A stretch of DNA of 64,000 bases from an uncultured Bacteriovoracaceae bacterium (GTDB taxonomy: Bacteria; Bdellovibrionota; Bacteriovoracia; Bacteriovoracales; Bacteriovoracaceae). The stretch spans positions 32,001-96,000 of the forward strand of contig CAXGUD010000001.1 of the NCBI GenBank assembly GCA_964012805.1. Reading direction: 5' to 3'. The notes below the pieces were generated by a model that was given only the letters and a program-made list of their open reading frames with translations, was not told where the DNA came from and did not search any database. Positions 29,235-35,999 of the stretch are shown in pieces. Within the stretch, counting starts at the first letter, position 1; every line of letters begins with the position of its first letter. Both the position numbers and the translations under genes were made by a program.

Positions 29235-29678
29235 TTAAAGGCTTGGAGATTGAGTTAACTTTACTTTAAGGTTTTCTATAGATTTTTCAACTGCCTTAGT
29301 AAGTAAAATTCTGGCCCTTGAAATGGCCGTTCCTAAATCGACCCCCAAAACAAAGAAATCTAACATTTCTAAATTTTCTGGCCAATCAACGGTTGCATGA
29401 AAAACGATTGTTCTGTCTTTACTTATGAATAACTGAACAATAAAATCATCAAATTTGAAATTCCAAAATTTATCTTTAAATAAACCAACCTCGTCTAATG
29501 ACTCCATAAGGTTGAAAAGTGAAGCTTCTTTAAAAACAAACTCGCCTATTATTGAAAAGCCTACAACTTCCTGTCCTTTACCTTTTATCTCATCGACTTC
29601 ATAAAGGCTTTTTATATAAGTACCCTCAAGACCTTCCTTAAAGTTTTTAACAGCTAGCTTTTCCATAAATCGGTTCAA
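29235..29678 (-). CDS. Hypothetical protein
   Basis: 147-aa ORF with GAGG upstream of the TTG. Confidence 0.65.
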   Translation of the reverse strand: MNRFMEKLAVKNFKEGLEGTYIKSLYEVDEIKGKGQEVVGFSIIGEFVFKEASLFNLMESLDEVGLFKDKFWNFKFDDFIVQLFISKDRTIVFHATVDWPENLEMLDFFVLGVDLGTAISRARILLTKAVEKSIENLKVKLTQSPSL

Positions 29679-29937: not shown

Positions 29938-30654
29938 TTAGAATGAAAGATTAAGGGCCAATCCATTTTTTATAGGAATAAGTCTCGCTTTATTCCAAAA
30001 TTTTTTTTCAGAAACCAACTCATTATAAAATATTCTCCTATAGACCGCCCTCTTTTTTGAAGCCAGTGTTGGAACAGAGGACCTTTGAGACTCAAAAATA
30101 AGTGTCCCCATTAAGAAGTGAATAATTCCACCCATAGGCCTTTCATCACCAAGCCAAACTGCTATTCCTCCAAGAGTATTGATTAAAAGTCCTGTTATTC
30201 GGCGATTCCAGCTCTTTATACTCACCTCTCTTTTGTAAGCATTCTCTAAAATTGCTTCCCCTAACTTTAACTTTTTATGACCTTCAGGGAGCTCATTGAA
30301 AAGGGCCAAATCCATTTTGGGATAGAAGCGGTTGAAAAGCATATCCCAAGCGCCAAAAGTACTTTGAATAGTGATTAAACCACTCGTAAAGCTTGTAGAC
30401 CTGTCTCCTGAAGTAAAATGAACCGCCAAACCACCAATGGCAAGACTTGAATAAATGGCCGTATAACTTCTTTCCCACCTCACTGTTTTTGATGAAATTA
30501 AAAAGCCCTTTCTTGTCGCTTGAGCAAATGTATTTTCCAAGAATTTTAATTGTCTAGAAAGCTTGGCCCCTCCCATATCATCAAATGATAAAGCAGGTTT
30601 AAAAGAAAAAGTAAGGATTAAACTTATAAAAAGTTTTAAAAAAAAAGCTGCCAT
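29938..30654 (-). CDS. Unknown envelope protein, paralogue of 55021..55731
   Basis: Signal peptide from ATG 30654; aligns by eye with the paralogue; ends GLALNLSF. Confidence 0.75.
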   Translation of the reverse strand: MAAFFLKLFISLILTFSFKPALSFDDMGGAKLSRQLKFLENTFAQATRKGFLISSKTVRWERSYTAIYSSLAIGGLAVHFTSGDRSTSFTSGLITIQSTFGAWDMLFNRFYPKMDLALFNELPEGHKKLKLGEAILENAYKREVSIKSWNRRITGLLINTLGGIAVWLGDERPMGGIIHFLMGTLIFESQRSSVPTLASKKRAVYRRIFYNELVSEKKFWNKARLIPIKNGLALNLSF

Positions 30655-30847
30655 TTTTCTTCTTTCAATCACAAGCCCATCTCCTCTTCCCTCGCCAAAA
30701 AATGTAAGGAAAGGCCCTAAAAGACCTTTCGGAGTTTTATTTTTAACTTTAAATAGGGTTAAGAGAAAAGGTTGAATACAATAATCGGATAACAACTTTC
30801 AAAGATTGACTGTTTCCATTGCCTAAGTCGAGTTGATTGGTGGTCTT

Positions 30848-31726
30848 TTATTTTAGAAACCACTCAAGATCAATAACCAAGGGATCATGATCTGATAAGG
30901 GTTTTTTCTTAGAGTCATAGAAGTCAAATTTATAAGGTAAAAAGAGTTCTTTTAGATCTAAGCCGACATCTGTTCCATCACGAAAAGTAAACCGATCTAA
31001 AACCCCTTGCTTCTCTTGGCTACAAACTAAATCTTTACACATATACCGCATATTATTTCTTGCTAAAAAAAGGTGGAACACAAACTGATCATCTTCATCA
31101 TCGTGAAGAAGGTTCCAGTCTCCGGCCACAATAACCGCACGCCCTTTTGACTTTTCTTCTATTGTTTGACTTAAAAACTTAAATTGCTGAAAGCGTGCCT
31201 TTTTATCACTTTTACTTCGACCAGCATCAGCGTGGACATTATAAATATCTACGAAAAGCCCTGGAGAAACTTCATGACGGGAAAAAGTAAAGCCCTTCTT
31301 GGCCAAACAGTCTGAGTCATTCCTCAAAACACCCGAACAAGTTGGCCAAGAGAAAGTTTCAAAATGATGAAACGGCTTTTTTGAAAGACGCATTAAACCA
31401 TTCCCAAGGACTCCTCTAAAATCTGACTTTTGCCAAAAAGGAAAGCTAACAGCTTCCATAAGAAGGGAATGATAACTGAAGTTTTCCTGAAGGAGAGCGA
31501 TATCAAATCTATTGATTTTTTCACCAATAGTCCGCATATTCTTTCTGTTTCTTAAGGGAGAAATGACATTGTGAATACCTGCCACGTTATAGCTAAGGAT
31601 CGTAAGGGTTCCTCTATTTTCATACTGATAAGAAAAAGATGTGCCACTAAAAAGAAAACAAAAACTGCAAAAAACAACAGAAAACTTAATAAAGCTCTTC
31701 ATAAAAATTGACATCCTTTTTAACAT
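30848..31726 (-). CDS. Secreted endonuclease/exonuclease/phosphatase (sphingomyelinase-like) protein
   Basis: LSYNVAG, LLQENF, NVHADAG, AGDWN, SDHDP. Confidence 0.88.
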   Translation of the reverse strand: MLKRMSIFMKSFIKFSVVFCSFCFLFSGTSFSYQYENRGTLTILSYNVAGIHNVISPLRNRKNMRTIGEKINRFDIALLQENFSYHSLLMEAVSFPFWQKSDFRGVLGNGLMRLSKKPFHHFETFSWPTCSGVLRNDSDCLAKKGFTFSRHEVSPGLFVDIYNVHADAGRSKSDKKARFQQFKFLSQTIEEKSKGRAVIVAGDWNLLHDDEDDQFVFHLFLARNNMRYMCKDLVCSQEKQGVLDRFTFRDGTDVGLDLKELFLPYKFDFYDSKKKPLSDHDPLVIDLEWFLK

Positions 31727-31854: not shown

Positions 31855-32241
31855 ATGGAAAAGAAACTAACTTCCAGAAAAAACTATGTCATGGGGCTTT
31901 CACTACTCGGCTTTTTTGGGAGTTTAACAACATTTTTCCTACTCCAACATGAGCCAGAAAAGGAAAATTCAAGCCTCACTCAGAAAGAACCAAAGCGAGT
32001 CGTAGGAAGTAAAAAACTTACTTTGACTCCGAAAGTGAAAAAAACTACGAATAAGGCTCCCTCCAAAAGCCTCTATGTCCCACCCGAAACTTTTATTGGC
32101 AACCAGAAGCTAAACTTTGAATTCATTAAAAAGGAAATAAAGGCCCAAAAAAAAGAAAAAAAAACCTATGATACCAAAGACTTTAAAAGGAAAGAGAAAG
32201 ACCATAAAAATGTTTTTCTTTCTCTCCTAAAAACCAAATAA
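31855..32241 (+). CDS. Hypothetical basic membrane-anchored protein
   Basis: One N-terminal TM, Lys-rich tail, SD GAGG. Confidence 0.6.
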   Translation: MEKKLTSRKNYVMGLSLLGFFGSLTTFFLLQHEPEKENSSLTQKEPKRVVGSKKLTLTPKVKKTTNKAPSKSLYVPPETFIGNQKLNFEFIKKEIKAQKKEKKTYDTKDFKRKEKDHKNVFLSLLKTK

Positions 32242-32346: not shown

Positions 32347-33030
32347 ATGAAACGAAAAATCTATCACGCTGTTATATACATCATTTTAAGAACACTCTAC
32401 GCAACGTACCGGCTTCGCTTTACAGGTCTTGAGAACTTAAAAAAGGCCCAGGAGGAACACCCTCAAGGAAGCGTTATCTTTGCTTTGTGGCATGAACATT
32501 TCCTCGCTGGTATCTTTAGCATTAAAATTTTCAAGCCTTGTGCCATGGTTAGCCCCTCAAAAGATGGAGAAATTGTGGCCCGCTTCGTTAAAAAGTTGGG
32601 ATATACCGTAGCAAGAGGAAGCTCAAGCCGTGGAGGTAAGCATGCTAAAAATGATGCCATTAATGCCCTCGACAAAGGCACAATTGCTGCCATAACTGTT
32701 GATGGCCCCAAAGGACCTCGAAACAAAGCTAAGCCTGGAATTGTAAACCTTTCAAAAATCTCCGGGGCACCTATTATTCCTATTTCACCTATTACTGAAA
32801 GTCCAAAAATTTTTGAAAAATCATGGGATCAAAATAAATTCCCTAAACCTTTTTCAAAAATTGTCCTCCGCTTTGGTGAAGCCGTTCATGTTCCCCAAAG
32901 CGCTCAAGGTGAAGCCTTTGACCAATTGAGAGACAAATTAGATGATCAACTTATTCAAACTGAAAAAATCGCCGAAGGTGACTTTAAAGACTGGAAAAAG
33001 CTGCCCAGCTCTCCTGGCCTTGGTTTTTAA
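32347..33030 (+). CDS. DUF374 / lysophospholipid acyltransferase family protein
   Basis: WHEH, SPSKDGE, RGSSSRGG, TVDGPKGP, SWD...PKPF. Confidence 0.9.
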   Translation: MKRKIYHAVIYIILRTLYATYRLRFTGLENLKKAQEEHPQGSVIFALWHEHFLAGIFSIKIFKPCAMVSPSKDGEIVARFVKKLGYTVARGSSSRGGKHAKNDAINALDKGTIAAITVDGPKGPRNKAKPGIVNLSKISGAPIIPISPITESPKIFEKSWDQNKFPKPFSKIVLRFGEAVHVPQSAQGEAFDQLRDKLDDQLIQTEKIAEGDFKDWKKLPSSPGLGF

Positions 33031-33596
33031 CACTTGCCTATCATGACGCTGCTACCGTTAGGGTGGTTGTAATAAGAACAGCTCCCATTACTACCAAGTG
33101 ACCCTCCTGGTGTCCTTTTAAGCCAACCCTTACCAACTTGACCATTCATCATGGATTTCAAATTAAAGAGCGTAGGTCCCCCTTCAAATCCGCCGTATCC
33201 CATCCCGTTAAGCCAATAACGGCCTGACTTAACAAAACCGAATAGTTTTTTAAGAAAAGCTTTCTCGAGAGGATGAATTTCCCTCCCATTAATAAAAACA
33301 CCAGAGCCCTCACCAGAAGAGTTTTTTAGGAGAACTCCACCTAATTTTAATCCTGGCAAAATTTGACCGAGCGAGGGCCCACCTTGGAGACCCCAAAGAC
33401 CGGAAAAAGAGTCGTACCAAAATCGACCTTCCTTAATTCTTACTTTGTAGGTCTTTTCTAGAAGTTCCACTTGGTCTCGCTTCAAGTTCTCGCCGTTAAT
33501 AATCACTTTTGTCTCAGAACTTTTGGAAATTGGTAAGGATAAGATGAAACAAAGAAAGACATAGAAACACTTTTTCCAATTATTTTTTAATAACAT
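33027..33596 (-). CDS. Secreted hypothetical protein resembling the plant XLG/EDR4 repeat domain
   Basis: Signal peptide; VIING..., GRFWYDSFSGLWG..GGP, GVFINGREIH. Confidence 0.75.
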   Translation of the reverse strand: MLLKNNWKKCFYVFLCFILSLPISKSSETKVIINGENLKRDQVELLEKTYKVRIKEGRFWYDSFSGLWGLQGGPSLGQILPGLKLGGVLLKNSSGEGSGVFINGREIHPLEKAFLKKLFGFVKSGRYWLNGMGYGGFEGGPTLFNLKSMMNGQVGKGWLKRTPGGSLGSNGSCSYYNHPNGSSVMIGKC

Positions 33597-33902
33597 GCTT
33601 TTTTCCTATTTTTTTAAAAGCTTAAAACTAAAACAAGAAAATAATCATACTAAAAAATTCTTTTTTTGAAAAAACTTATAGAAAAATTTGTTGATTCCGC
33701 GAGGAAATATGGATGAGGTTAGGAAAAAACAGAGTACCTTTTTTCTACTTTCTACAGAGCCTATTTATGAAATATATCATAAAAAACCTTAAAGAATTTT
33801 AGAAAAGGCGGTTAAGACTATCAGAATAATTAAAAAGTCTTTTTAACATTTATGTTCATACTTTTTTATATTCCTCAACTCCTAACACGCCCCCTTATTT
33901 TT

Positions 33903-34763
33903 TTACTTAGGCAGTTCACAACCAGGAAGCTGAAGATCAAATTCATTTTGAGAGTTCAAGCAGCTATAAATTAAATATGTCTGCTGCCCATAGGTAGCCC
34001 CCCTTCTTACCGTGACGCTATTGTTTTCATCCACTTCGCAAGGGTTATTCATTGAACACCTTCTGCCCGACTCATTAGCAGTGTTATTAACACCAACGAC
34101 GAGCCTGGTATCACTGTCTATAATAGGAGAACCACTTGTACCACCGATTGTTTTACAGCCAGTATTTGTGTACCTAATAGAGTCGACAAAAGTCCACGAA
34201 GCTTCTTTCAACCTAAAAATAAAATCGTCAATCTGACAAGAATAGCCTCGCTCCCAGTAACCAGAAATTATCTCAATATTATCTCCCACCTGAGGTCGGT
34301 TTTCAGAAAGTTCAAAGGCCTCAATGCCAAGTTTTTTAAGATCATTGTAGGTTTCTTTTAGTCGGTAAAGCGCAGAGTCTGTATCAGTCATTGTTGCGTA
34401 TATAATTTCTTTTGCTGTAATCCTATGAAACCTTCTATTACTATCAGCAACCCTCATTCTGCGGTTGACTCTTTTCTTATAGACAACCTGTCCTGGTTTT
34501 ATAAAAGACCCCCCCAAGCAATGGCCATTTGTTAAAACGATGGCATTGTCGCTAAGCTTTTGTCCTACAAACTTAATGACCGCCCCACTACAATTTGATA
34601 GTTTAACGATCCCTTCAAAATCATAATTATAGGAATCAAAGTAAATTGGCGGCGTGATATTTGACTTTAAAGCGTCATAGGGTGCTTCAGGAAAAGCGGA
34701 TGCCTTCCATGAGAAAAGAGTAAGAAATGCAATAAAGATGGTCTTTTTCAAATTTACCTCCAT
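33903..34763 (-). CDS. Secreted trypsin-like serine protease
   Basis: Signal peptide; TNGHC (His), TDSALY (Asp), GGTSGSP (Ser). Confidence 0.9.
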   Translation of the reverse strand: MEVNLKKTIFIAFLTLFSWKASAFPEAPYDALKSNITPPIYFDSYNYDFEGIVKLSNCSGAVIKFVGQKLSDNAIVLTNGHCLGGSFIKPGQVVYKKRVNRRMRVADSNRRFHRITAKEIIYATMTDTDSALYRLKETYNDLKKLGIEAFELSENRPQVGDNIEIISGYWERGYSCQIDDFIFRLKEASWTFVDSIRYTNTGCKTIGGTSGSPIIDSDTRLVVGVNNTANESGRRCSMNNPCEVDENNSVTVRRGATYGQQTYLIYSCLNSQNEFDLQLPGCELPK

Positions 34764-34890: not shown

Positions 34891-35352
34891 TTAATTAGAA
34901 AGCTGCGTTTTTGCACAATTGGGGCATAGGCCGGTCATTTCTAGATGGTGACTGAGGTTTCGATAACCATAACTTTCCAACTGCCTTTCTTGTTTTGAAA
35001 TAAGACATCCTTTAAGAGGCTCAATTGTATTGCATTGGTTACATTTAAAATAATGCTCATGACCTTTAGCATTATTTTTTTTAGAATTAGAGAGCATAAA
35101 CCTCGCTGGTTCACCTTGGAAAATACTTCTTTTCACAAGTCCAAGCTCTTCAAAAGTCGTTAGGGTTCGGTAAACAGAAGCCTGGTCACAATTAAGTTTT
35201 TTAGACCGTTGAATTTGAGTATGAATCTCCTCTGGAGTCAGCAAAGCTTTATTTTTAATAAGTACATTGGCCACAGCTAAACGGGGCTTAGTTATCCTTA
35301 GAGAGTGGGATTGAAGGGCCTCTTTTACTTGAACAAATTGATTCTTATTCAT
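34891..35352 (-). CDS. Fur family metalloregulator
   Basis: LRITKPRLAV, ASVYRTL..FEELGLV, HEHYFKCNQC...GLCPNC. Confidence 0.93.
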   Translation of the reverse strand: MNKNQFVQVKEALQSHSLRITKPRLAVANVLIKNKALLTPEEIHTQIQRSKKLNCDQASVYRTLTTFEELGLVKRSIFQGEPARFMLSNSKKNNAKGHEHYFKCNQCNTIEPLKGCLISKQERQLESYGYRNLSHHLEMTGLCPNCAKTQLSN

Positions 35353-35570: not shown

Positions 35571-35999
35571 TTAATCATCCTCCCCTGTTTCAAAATAGTC
35601 ATAAGGGTTGAACTCTCCCTTTGCATCGACTTTTAAATAGATTTCTTTTTCCCCATTAAGTATTAACAATTCTCTTCTTTCTTTTGACTGCTAACTCTTT
35701 TTCTTATTCTCGTAAAAAATATATCCATGACCTCGAGGTTCCTTAAGCTCAACAAAATTTTTTATTTCAGGGGGGCCATCCAAACGTTTGATTAAGATCT
35801 CAAAAGAGGGACATTTATACTGGCGGTATCCCTCGCTCCCTTTCCAAGCTTGACACTCTTTAGGCGAATAATAGTAATACAAATTAGGCGCTATATATGT
35901 GGAAAAACTTTTGTAGGAAAAAAGTAAAAAAATAGTTAAGAGGGCCCCTAAAAAGAGCACGATCGATATAATGAGTATCTTTTTTATCCGAGTTTTCAT
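35571..35999 (-). pseudogene. Membrane-anchored hypothetical protein, possibly interrupted by an in-frame TAG at 35691-35693
   Basis: The 102-aa ORF continues in frame for 39 more codons (QSKERRELLILNGEKEIYLKVDAKGEFNPYDYFETGEDD) after the TAG. Confidence 0.45.

Follow-up and report, generated by a model that had tools for sequence, protein, structure and literature searches.

A bacterial protein with an export-type leader shares a two-repeat core with plant extra-large G proteins

The stretch of DNA described here (hereafter the window, 64,000 nucleotides, positions 32,001 to 96,000 of contig CAXGUD010000001.1 of an uncultured Bacteriovoracaceae bacterium) carries on its minus strand the gene for a small protein, P0001. 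The core of this protein is almost certainly homologous to the stretch of plant extra-large G proteins (XLGs) that lies between their Cys-rich region and their G-alpha domain. The gene, its parts and its upstream signals are as follows.

33027..33596, minus strand: whole gene, 189 codons plus the stop codon at 33027-33029; encodes P0001, 189 amino acids
33519..33596, minus strand: leader, residues 1-26; Sec-type, with a K-rich n-region, a hydrophobic core and SKS; putative cleavage site
33357..33512, minus strand: repeat 1, residues 29-80; strand-helix-three strands, with V-I-I-N-G and G-R-F-W-Y-D-x-x-S-G-L-W-G-x-x-G-G-P
33306..33356, minus strand: linker, residues 81-97; family consensus PGLxLGGPLxxDASGGxTG, kept in bacteria and plant XLGs
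33159..33305, minus strand: repeat 2, residues 98-146; G-V-F-I-N-G-R-E-I-H and G-R-Y-W-L-N-x-x-G-Y-G-G-F-E-G-G-P
33147..33518, minus strand: core domain as modelled, residues 27-150; the part matching plant XLG proteins and, in predicted models, an EDR4-like cluster of the ESM Atlas
33030..33158, minus strand: C-terminal tail, residues 147-189; Gly/Ser-rich, four short strands in the model, C173 and C189
33604..33607, minus strand: likely ribosome-binding site AGGA, 7 nucleotides before the ATG
33644..33672, minus strand: promoter-like site TTTTCA-17-TATGAT; weak, a consensus match only (9/12 positions)

The leader consists of Lys-rich residues, the hydrophobic stretch CFYVFLCFILSLPI and then SKS, and its best 12-residue window has a Kyte-Doolittle mean of 2.6. 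This and all other leader calls below come from a hydrophobicity heuristic and not from a signal-peptide predictor. In the translation, GRFWYDSFSGLWGLQGGP occupies residues 57-74 and SGVFINGREIH residues 98-108. Profiles of the two repeats, taken from a 38-row alignment, matched each other in hhalign with a probability of 98.7% (E 3e-16, 46 columns). Within the core, which is about 120 residues long, a strand-helix-three-strand unit occurs twice, as an internal duplication. Cysteines are found in the leader (C10 and C16) and in the tail (C173 and C189). A lipoprotein reading was ruled out, as neither C10 nor C16 is preceded by a lipobox. The C-terminal pair is present in all 121 near-length proteins (P0001-P0121) and absent from some more distant alignment members, which have other tails instead; we infer a C173-C189 disulfide.

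Similarity to plant proteins emerged from a profile search. We used a profile built from an alignment of 38 bacterial rows (A1) to search proteins of 362-2000 residues, with E-values computed for a database of 5.8 billion sequences, and obtained 211 matches at E<=10 among 8000 candidates. The best 120 of these 211 comprised 37 bacterial fusion proteins and 83 proteins with a G-alpha domain (PF00503), the latter at E-values from 6e-25 to 2e-22. With the exception of a few unnamed rows, these PF00503 proteins came from flowering plants and were mostly labelled extra-large guanine-nucleotide-binding protein (NCBI/UniRef). A single-sequence search among longer proteins returned five bacterial fusions and no plant protein; the plants were found with the profile only. 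When the profile was rerun locally, all 83 plant proteins scored 97.2-105.5 bits over profile positions of about 18-139, that is, over both repeats, versus a best score of 2.1 bits for 498 shuffled or reversed plant controls.

The match can also be followed in individual proteins. By BLASTP, P0001 aligns with residues 397-508 of a Vitis XLG (P0311) at 36% identity over 113 amino acids (E 1e-15), and with an Ananas protein (P0350) at 32% identity (E 4e-16). The only Pfam domain of P0311 is the G-alpha domain (561-947), and the matched stretch lies shortly before it, in a part of the protein without a model. The plant motifs NYWYDKVSGLWGKEG and NTQVFINGREIT are both present in P0311. Conservation of 80% or more in 73 bacterial rows was found at 41 positions, and at 31 of these the residue is shared by at least 80% of 20 plant rows.

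The matched domain is not the Cys-rich region that the literature names, but the stretch after it. In its accessible text, a preprint of 2025 treats the XLG N-terminal domain as uncharacterised; the only features that it names there are a nuclear localisation signal and a Cys-rich domain, annotated as a zinc finger of RING/FYVE/PHD type, and it describes AlphaFold models of the N-terminus as low-confidence outside part of the Cys-rich region (10.1101/2025.06.18.660248). Three reviews, as far as their available sections go, likewise give the N-terminal half only a nuclear localisation signal and a Cys-rich region, to which no function is assigned, and treat XLGs as plant-specific or unique to plants (PMC13185490, 2026; PMC3718340, 2013; PMC9224535, 2022). 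In the 2013 review XLG homologues are described as broadly present in land plants, and no G-protein elements were seen in the green-algal genomes sequenced at the time (PMC3718340, 2013). Within these excerpts, the four sources agree with the original prediction that the domain is regarded as plant-specific and has no defined function. In the literature searched, whose coverage leaves out most subscription journals, no paper linked this XLG stretch to bacterial relatives or to horizontal gene transfer. Titles and abstracts on EDR4 and DUF3133, and those on a bacterial origin of XLGs, contained nothing on bacterial relatives.

P0001 was shown to be a stand-alone member of a large, unnamed bacterial domain family. 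It matched no family of Pfam-A or NCBIfam even at E<=10, and no PADLOC model. Of 331 near-length candidates, 239 reached E<=1e-3; none of the best 120 had a name beyond 'hypothetical protein'. Among representatives of clusters at 50% identity, 1423 were found at E<=1e-3, 881 of them at E<=1e-10. Eight positions are invariant in the 38 members of A1 (N34, W60, Y61, G66, G69, G77, N103 and R105), and the consensus reads V-x-V-N-G..L...G-x-Y-W-Y-D-x-x-S-G-L-W-G-x-x-G-G-P ... D-A-S-G-G-x-T-G-V-F-I-N-G-R-E-L-H ... P-G-R-Y-W-L-D-A-x-G-x-G-G-x-E-G-G-P.

A scan of prokaryotes with one genome per species gave 273 pattern matches, of which 265 were confirmed and 80 loci kept. Hosts of these 80 loci include Bacteriovoracales (the nearest, at 63% identity), many Gemmatimonadota, Burkholderiales and other Pseudomonadota, and Thermodesulfobacteriota, and further Nitrospira, Acidobacteriota, Planctomycetota, Chloroflexota and Methylomirabilota. 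At least nine phyla are thus represented (Bdellovibrionota, Gemmatimonadota, Pseudomonadota, Thermodesulfobacteriota, Nitrospirota, Acidobacteriota, Planctomycetota, Chloroflexota and Methylomirabilota), with most members coming from metagenome bins. Closer to home the gene is rare: it was found in one of 151 genomes sampled from the order, namely the source genome itself, where it is single-copy, and in three of 401 genomes from the phylum, one of them a weak match (E 5.7e-4). The distribution is therefore wide but patchy, because many phyla are represented overall, yet the gene is rare in its own order and phylum. GC content around the gene is 0.38 and does not depart from the rest of the window; the gene may have been acquired recently and have left no trace in composition.

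The predicted structure agrees with the repeat organisation. With the A1 alignment, whole P0001 was modelled at a mean predicted local distance difference test (pLDDT) score of 90.0, with the tail as four short strands, and the core (residues 27-150) at pLDDT 96.3 and a predicted template modelling score of 0.87. The core model shows two tandem units, each composed of a short strand, a helix of about 11 residues and a meander, which has three strands in the first unit and two in the second. Residues 27-150 of the ESM Atlas model of P0001 superpose on an XLG1-like cluster with a template modelling (TM) score by query of 0.87 (124 aligned residues), and the Atlas model of P0001 superposes on an EDR4-like cluster with a TM score of 0.84 (123 aligned residues), in a stretch without a Pfam family; the models are predicted on both sides. 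Both clusters are from Streptophyta. In the EDR4-like cluster, 84% of members carry Zn_ribbon_12 (PF11331) and 63% EDR4-like_1st (PF22910). At the level of predicted models, then, the P0001 core was shown to match a stretch of EDR4-like proteins. An Atlas search starting from the plant stretch added one unnamed plant cluster (score 0.82), which we regard as a lead only.

Solved structures gave no comparable match. Foldseek searches with the whole model and with the core found nothing among solved structures at E<=1e-3. In VIA-align, run against 48,161 representative chains, the whole model reached a Z of at most 2.1, and none of the chains scored Z>=2 with the core. By sequence, P0001 found only noise in the PDB (E 0.048 to a fluorescent protein), and the family profile had no match there. 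This is no proof of a new fold. As these searches found no solved structure that resembles P0001, no function can be transferred from structure.

Several parts of the original prediction can be judged from these data. The signal peptide, the two internal repeats and the Gly-rich tail with its Cys pair were confirmed in the translation and by hhalign, the leader by hydrophobicity only. That the protein is a counterpart of the plant XLG domain is borne out by the profile E-values, BLASTP, the shared positions and the superposition, and the XLG motifs named there are indeed found in plant proteins, P0311 among them. The structural superposition proposed as a check was run on the Atlas models, with the TM scores given above. 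A lack of any significant profile or structural match to XLG or EDR4 had been named as evidence to the contrary; matches to both were found, that to EDR4 by predicted structure.

The direction of transfer was approached with an unrooted tree of 93 core sequences and 120 columns. Its rows are the window protein, 53 loci (from 54 taxon-labelled loci chosen among the 80; one row was dropped for incomplete profile coverage), 19 fusions and 20 of the 83 plant proteins. All plant rows group in a single clade with support 100, on a stem of 2.32 changes per column. When rooted at the midpoint, the tree places this clade among bacterial rows, beside some Gammaproteobacteria, with a support of 86-88 only. 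A starred branch (support 97) separates two bacterial groups, and the plants belong to the larger. Because of the missing root and the long plant stem, we rejected the tree as evidence for direction. The phylogeny that the original prediction had suggested for this purpose therefore resolved the plants as one clade and did not tell which way the domain moved.

Distribution is more informative. The domain probably passed from bacteria to plants, because the bacterial family is very large, deeply diverged, spread over many phyla and built into many architectures, versus one eukaryotic lineage in the searches able to show eukaryotes (the A1 profile search and the Atlas superposition). An ancestor of the Streptophyta would have obtained the core from a bacterial donor; leader and tail would have disappeared, and the core would have been given a new, intracellular use in XLG and EDR4-type proteins. 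The proposal that the bacterial form is a possible ancestor of the plant domain is thus plausible from the distribution, although the tree does not show it. The homology could also be real with the direction reversed, the plant domain having entered bacteria and spread there, or the domain could be older than both groups and have been lost elsewhere. The unrooted tree would let the plant clade be sister to all bacterial rows, and the patchiness in bacteria shows that the gene moves between lineages. The size, depth, phylum range and variety of architectures of the bacterial family and its single eukaryotic counterpart stand against these possibilities, which we consider unlikely.

The location and the partners of the domain in bacteria bear on its function. 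A hydrophobic leader was found in 114 of 120 near-length relatives versus none of the 83 plant proteins. In fusion proteins the domain is at the C-terminal end, except in P0296. Its partners are secreted caspase-like peptidases (PF00656, some also matching CHAT), PDZ, DUF5640/lipocalin-like, DUF4412 and SLH domains, and most of the non-kinase fusions start with a hydrophobic leader. Two further fusions are Hanks-type Ser/Thr kinases, in which the kinase is followed by one hydrophobic helix (475-500 in P0284, 321-348 in P0290) and then by the domain. As read from sequence, the arrangement is that of a receptor kinase in which the domain forms the putative ectodomain. By the same kind of reading, the bacterial domain appears to act outside the cytoplasm, and the Cys pair in the tails of all 121 near-length proteins points the same way. 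Among 49 longer representatives, Pfam assigned no family to the N-terminal extension in 42; the other seven gave SHOCT, DUF5640 (two proteins), TPR, GYF_2 and a weak Bflower match.

Two of the fusion proteins have peculiarities of their own. P0296 (450 amino acids) carries the domain N-terminally (35-168), followed by about 280 residues without a Pfam family, and sits on a long branch of the tree. In P0284, the kinase region has matches to many PADLOC PD-T4-6 models, with E-values down to 4e-94, probably due to generic Ser/Thr-kinase similarity; the XLG-like domain itself matches no defence model.

We moderately favour the view that the domain is a binding or sensor module rather than an enzyme, because conservation is mostly of glycine and aromatic residues and because the domain is found appended C-terminally to several catalytic or adaptor domains that are unrelated to one another. 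The conserved positions are mostly Gly, Trp, Tyr and Pro, together with a few polar residues. The stand-alone form would then be a secreted or periplasmic binding protein stapled by its putative C-terminal disulfide. Behind a membrane helix, the domain would serve as the ectodomain of Hanks-type kinases and relay ligand binding to the kinase, and attached to caspase-like peptidases, PDZ, lipocalin-like or SLH domains it may aim or regulate (gate) its partner. The ligand might be a fragment of the envelope or a glycan, or a peptide. Since it can be no stronger than its weakest main step, the binding-module reading, the explanation as a whole stands only slightly better than even in our estimate.

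Instead of binding a ligand, the domain could associate with itself and so gather its partner domains, with the stand-alone form as a structural or regulatory oligomer. Relatives of caspase-like peptidases and of Hanks kinases, which are among the fusion partners, are switched on by dimerisation or proximity, and the core is itself a pseudo-dimer of two repeats. Nothing in the analysis supports oligomer formation, however, and members that stand alone far outnumber the fusions, as one would expect of a binder more than of a protein that dimerises something else. A homodimer prediction for mature P0001 (score 0.00, mark 0.42) weighs on neither side. On balance, we find self-association improbable.

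About equally improbable, and if anything a little more so, is a small enzyme acting for example on an envelope polymer, in which case the fusions would join two activities. It is true that the polar residues N34, D62, N103, R105, H108 and E138 are invariant or nearly so in bacteria and that most of them are kept in plants; H108, however, is not. Most conserved positions are of the Gly, Trp, Tyr or Pro type that is typical of a structural core, the domain amounts to about 120 residues in two small repeats for which no known catalytic fold was found by Foldseek or VIA-align, and it has been retained in the interior of plant cells, which provide no bacterial envelope substrate.

That the XLG similarity arose by chance or convergence in Gly-rich, low-complexity sequence, or from plant DNA contaminating bacterial bins, can be dismissed as highly improbable: P0001 is rich in glycine and metagenome bins are the source of most bacterial members, but the shuffled and reversed controls reject chance and low complexity, the match spans both repeats and 31 of 41 conserved positions, and members are found on long bacterial contigs and complete chromosomes beside ordinary bacterial genes, the window being a normal bacterial stretch.

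Several observations weigh against the preferred reading of a bacterial, extracytoplasmic binding domain that passed to plants. The plant sample consists of XLG1-type sequences from flowering plants only, and the EDR4 link is a superposition of two predicted models. The tree, which is unrooted and has a long plant stem attached with a support of 86-88 only, gives no direction of transfer. Six of the 120 near-length relatives and several of the 27 listed fusions lack a hydrophobic N-terminal stretch by the threshold used, some of them being truncated at contig ends. The conserved polar residues N34, D62, N103, R105 and E138 could equally serve catalysis. No result points to a ligand, and the functional reading of every member is a prediction. 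From the rarity of the gene, its role in its own lineage is therefore dispensable or niche-specific. Lastly, the 84 open reading frames flanking the gene at 42 loci include no widely recurrent partner.

Genomic surroundings are correspondingly uninformative. In the window, a DUF374 gene (32347-33030, plus strand) is convergent with the P0001 gene, their stop codons overlapping in TTAA at 33027-33030; a scan for terminators found no terminator-like site between or after the two genes. Upstream, at 33903-34763 on the minus strand, a 286-residue trypsin-like serine peptidase is encoded (Trypsin_2, E 4e-10, hydrophobic N-terminus). We rejected this peptidase as a conserved partner, as it does not recur in the 42 other loci. 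None of the window neighbours, neither DUF374 nor the peptidase nor a Fur-family regulator nearby (34891-35352, minus strand), recurs at the other loci examined. Neighbours repeated only in near-identical loci, namely Vut_1 (L022 and L032) and HTH_3 with GNAT (L064 and L067). As there is no conserved gene neighbour, context gives no pathway.

Other genes near P0001 include an endonuclease/exonuclease/phosphatase-family protein with a hydrophobic N-terminus (30848-31726, minus strand) and open reading frames without a Pfam family at 29235-29678, 29938-30795, 31855-32241 and 35691-35999. At a betaproteobacterial locus (L016:1547-4633), the upstream gene encodes a 1029-residue protein with AAA_22 and a weak NB-ARC match (STAND-type ATPase); this was seen once.

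The XLG and EDR4 families have been reported in plant signalling and disease resistance, and the homology changes how a part of them can be studied. A portion of the uncharacterised N-terminal half of XLGs is a discrete two-repeat domain with more than 1000 bacterial relatives. Used as an alignment, these relatives allow the domain to be modelled at pLDDT 96. It exists as a 160-residue bacterial protein, predicted to be exported, which should suit expression, crystallisation and ligand screening, so that an unexplained piece of two plant signalling families is brought within reach of a tractable, compact bacterial protein. XLG and EDR4-type proteins are tied to one module, for EDR4 through predicted models, and a bacterial origin is suggested. 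If the bacterial domain truly binds a defined small ligand or an envelope fragment, its plant counterpart may likewise bind a ligand, and XLGs would gain an input of their own, separate from nucleotide exchange. Tentatively, and at well under even odds, one may extend this to a fold without a solved relative that originated in bacteria, served there in extracytoplasmic sensing or binding, was captured by an ancestor of land plants and became the core of XLG and EDR4 proteins.

Among known systems, the bacterial architectures recall the PASTA-like sensor domains of Hanks-type kinases, which, like the P0001-type domain, would be small, repeated, placed beyond a single membrane helix and also found in other exported proteins. 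This comparison is an analogy of use and not of membership, as the sequence and fold searches found no similarity of P0001 to any solved structure. EDR4-like proteins, to which the core is linked by predicted structure, differ from P0001 in being intracellular proteins of plants with a zinc ribbon and other domains.

The closest comparison is with XLG1-type proteins such as P0311 of Vitis, P0342 of Lotus and P0350 of Ananas. They have the same two-repeat core of about 120 residues, and share with P0001 the elements NG...L, G-x-Y-W-Y-D-x-x-S-G-x-W-G, A-S-x-G-x-T-x-V-F-I-N-G-R-E and [FY]-W-x-[ND]-x-x-G...E-G. P0001 is not itself an XLG: with 189 amino acids and no Pfam family at E<=10 it fails as a whole extra-large G protein, and only the middle domain is held in common. 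The plant proteins in turn have no leader (0/83), continue after the core with a G-alpha domain, lack the Cys-pair tail (the alignment stops before the tail), and differ at the bacterially conserved positions P74, G77, R126 and G136 (in a numbering one lower than that of P0001 itself). According to the available parts of two reviews, XLGs are nuclear, cytosolic or plasma-membrane signalling proteins (PMC13185490, PMC3718340), whereas their bacterial counterpart P0001 carries an export-type leader.

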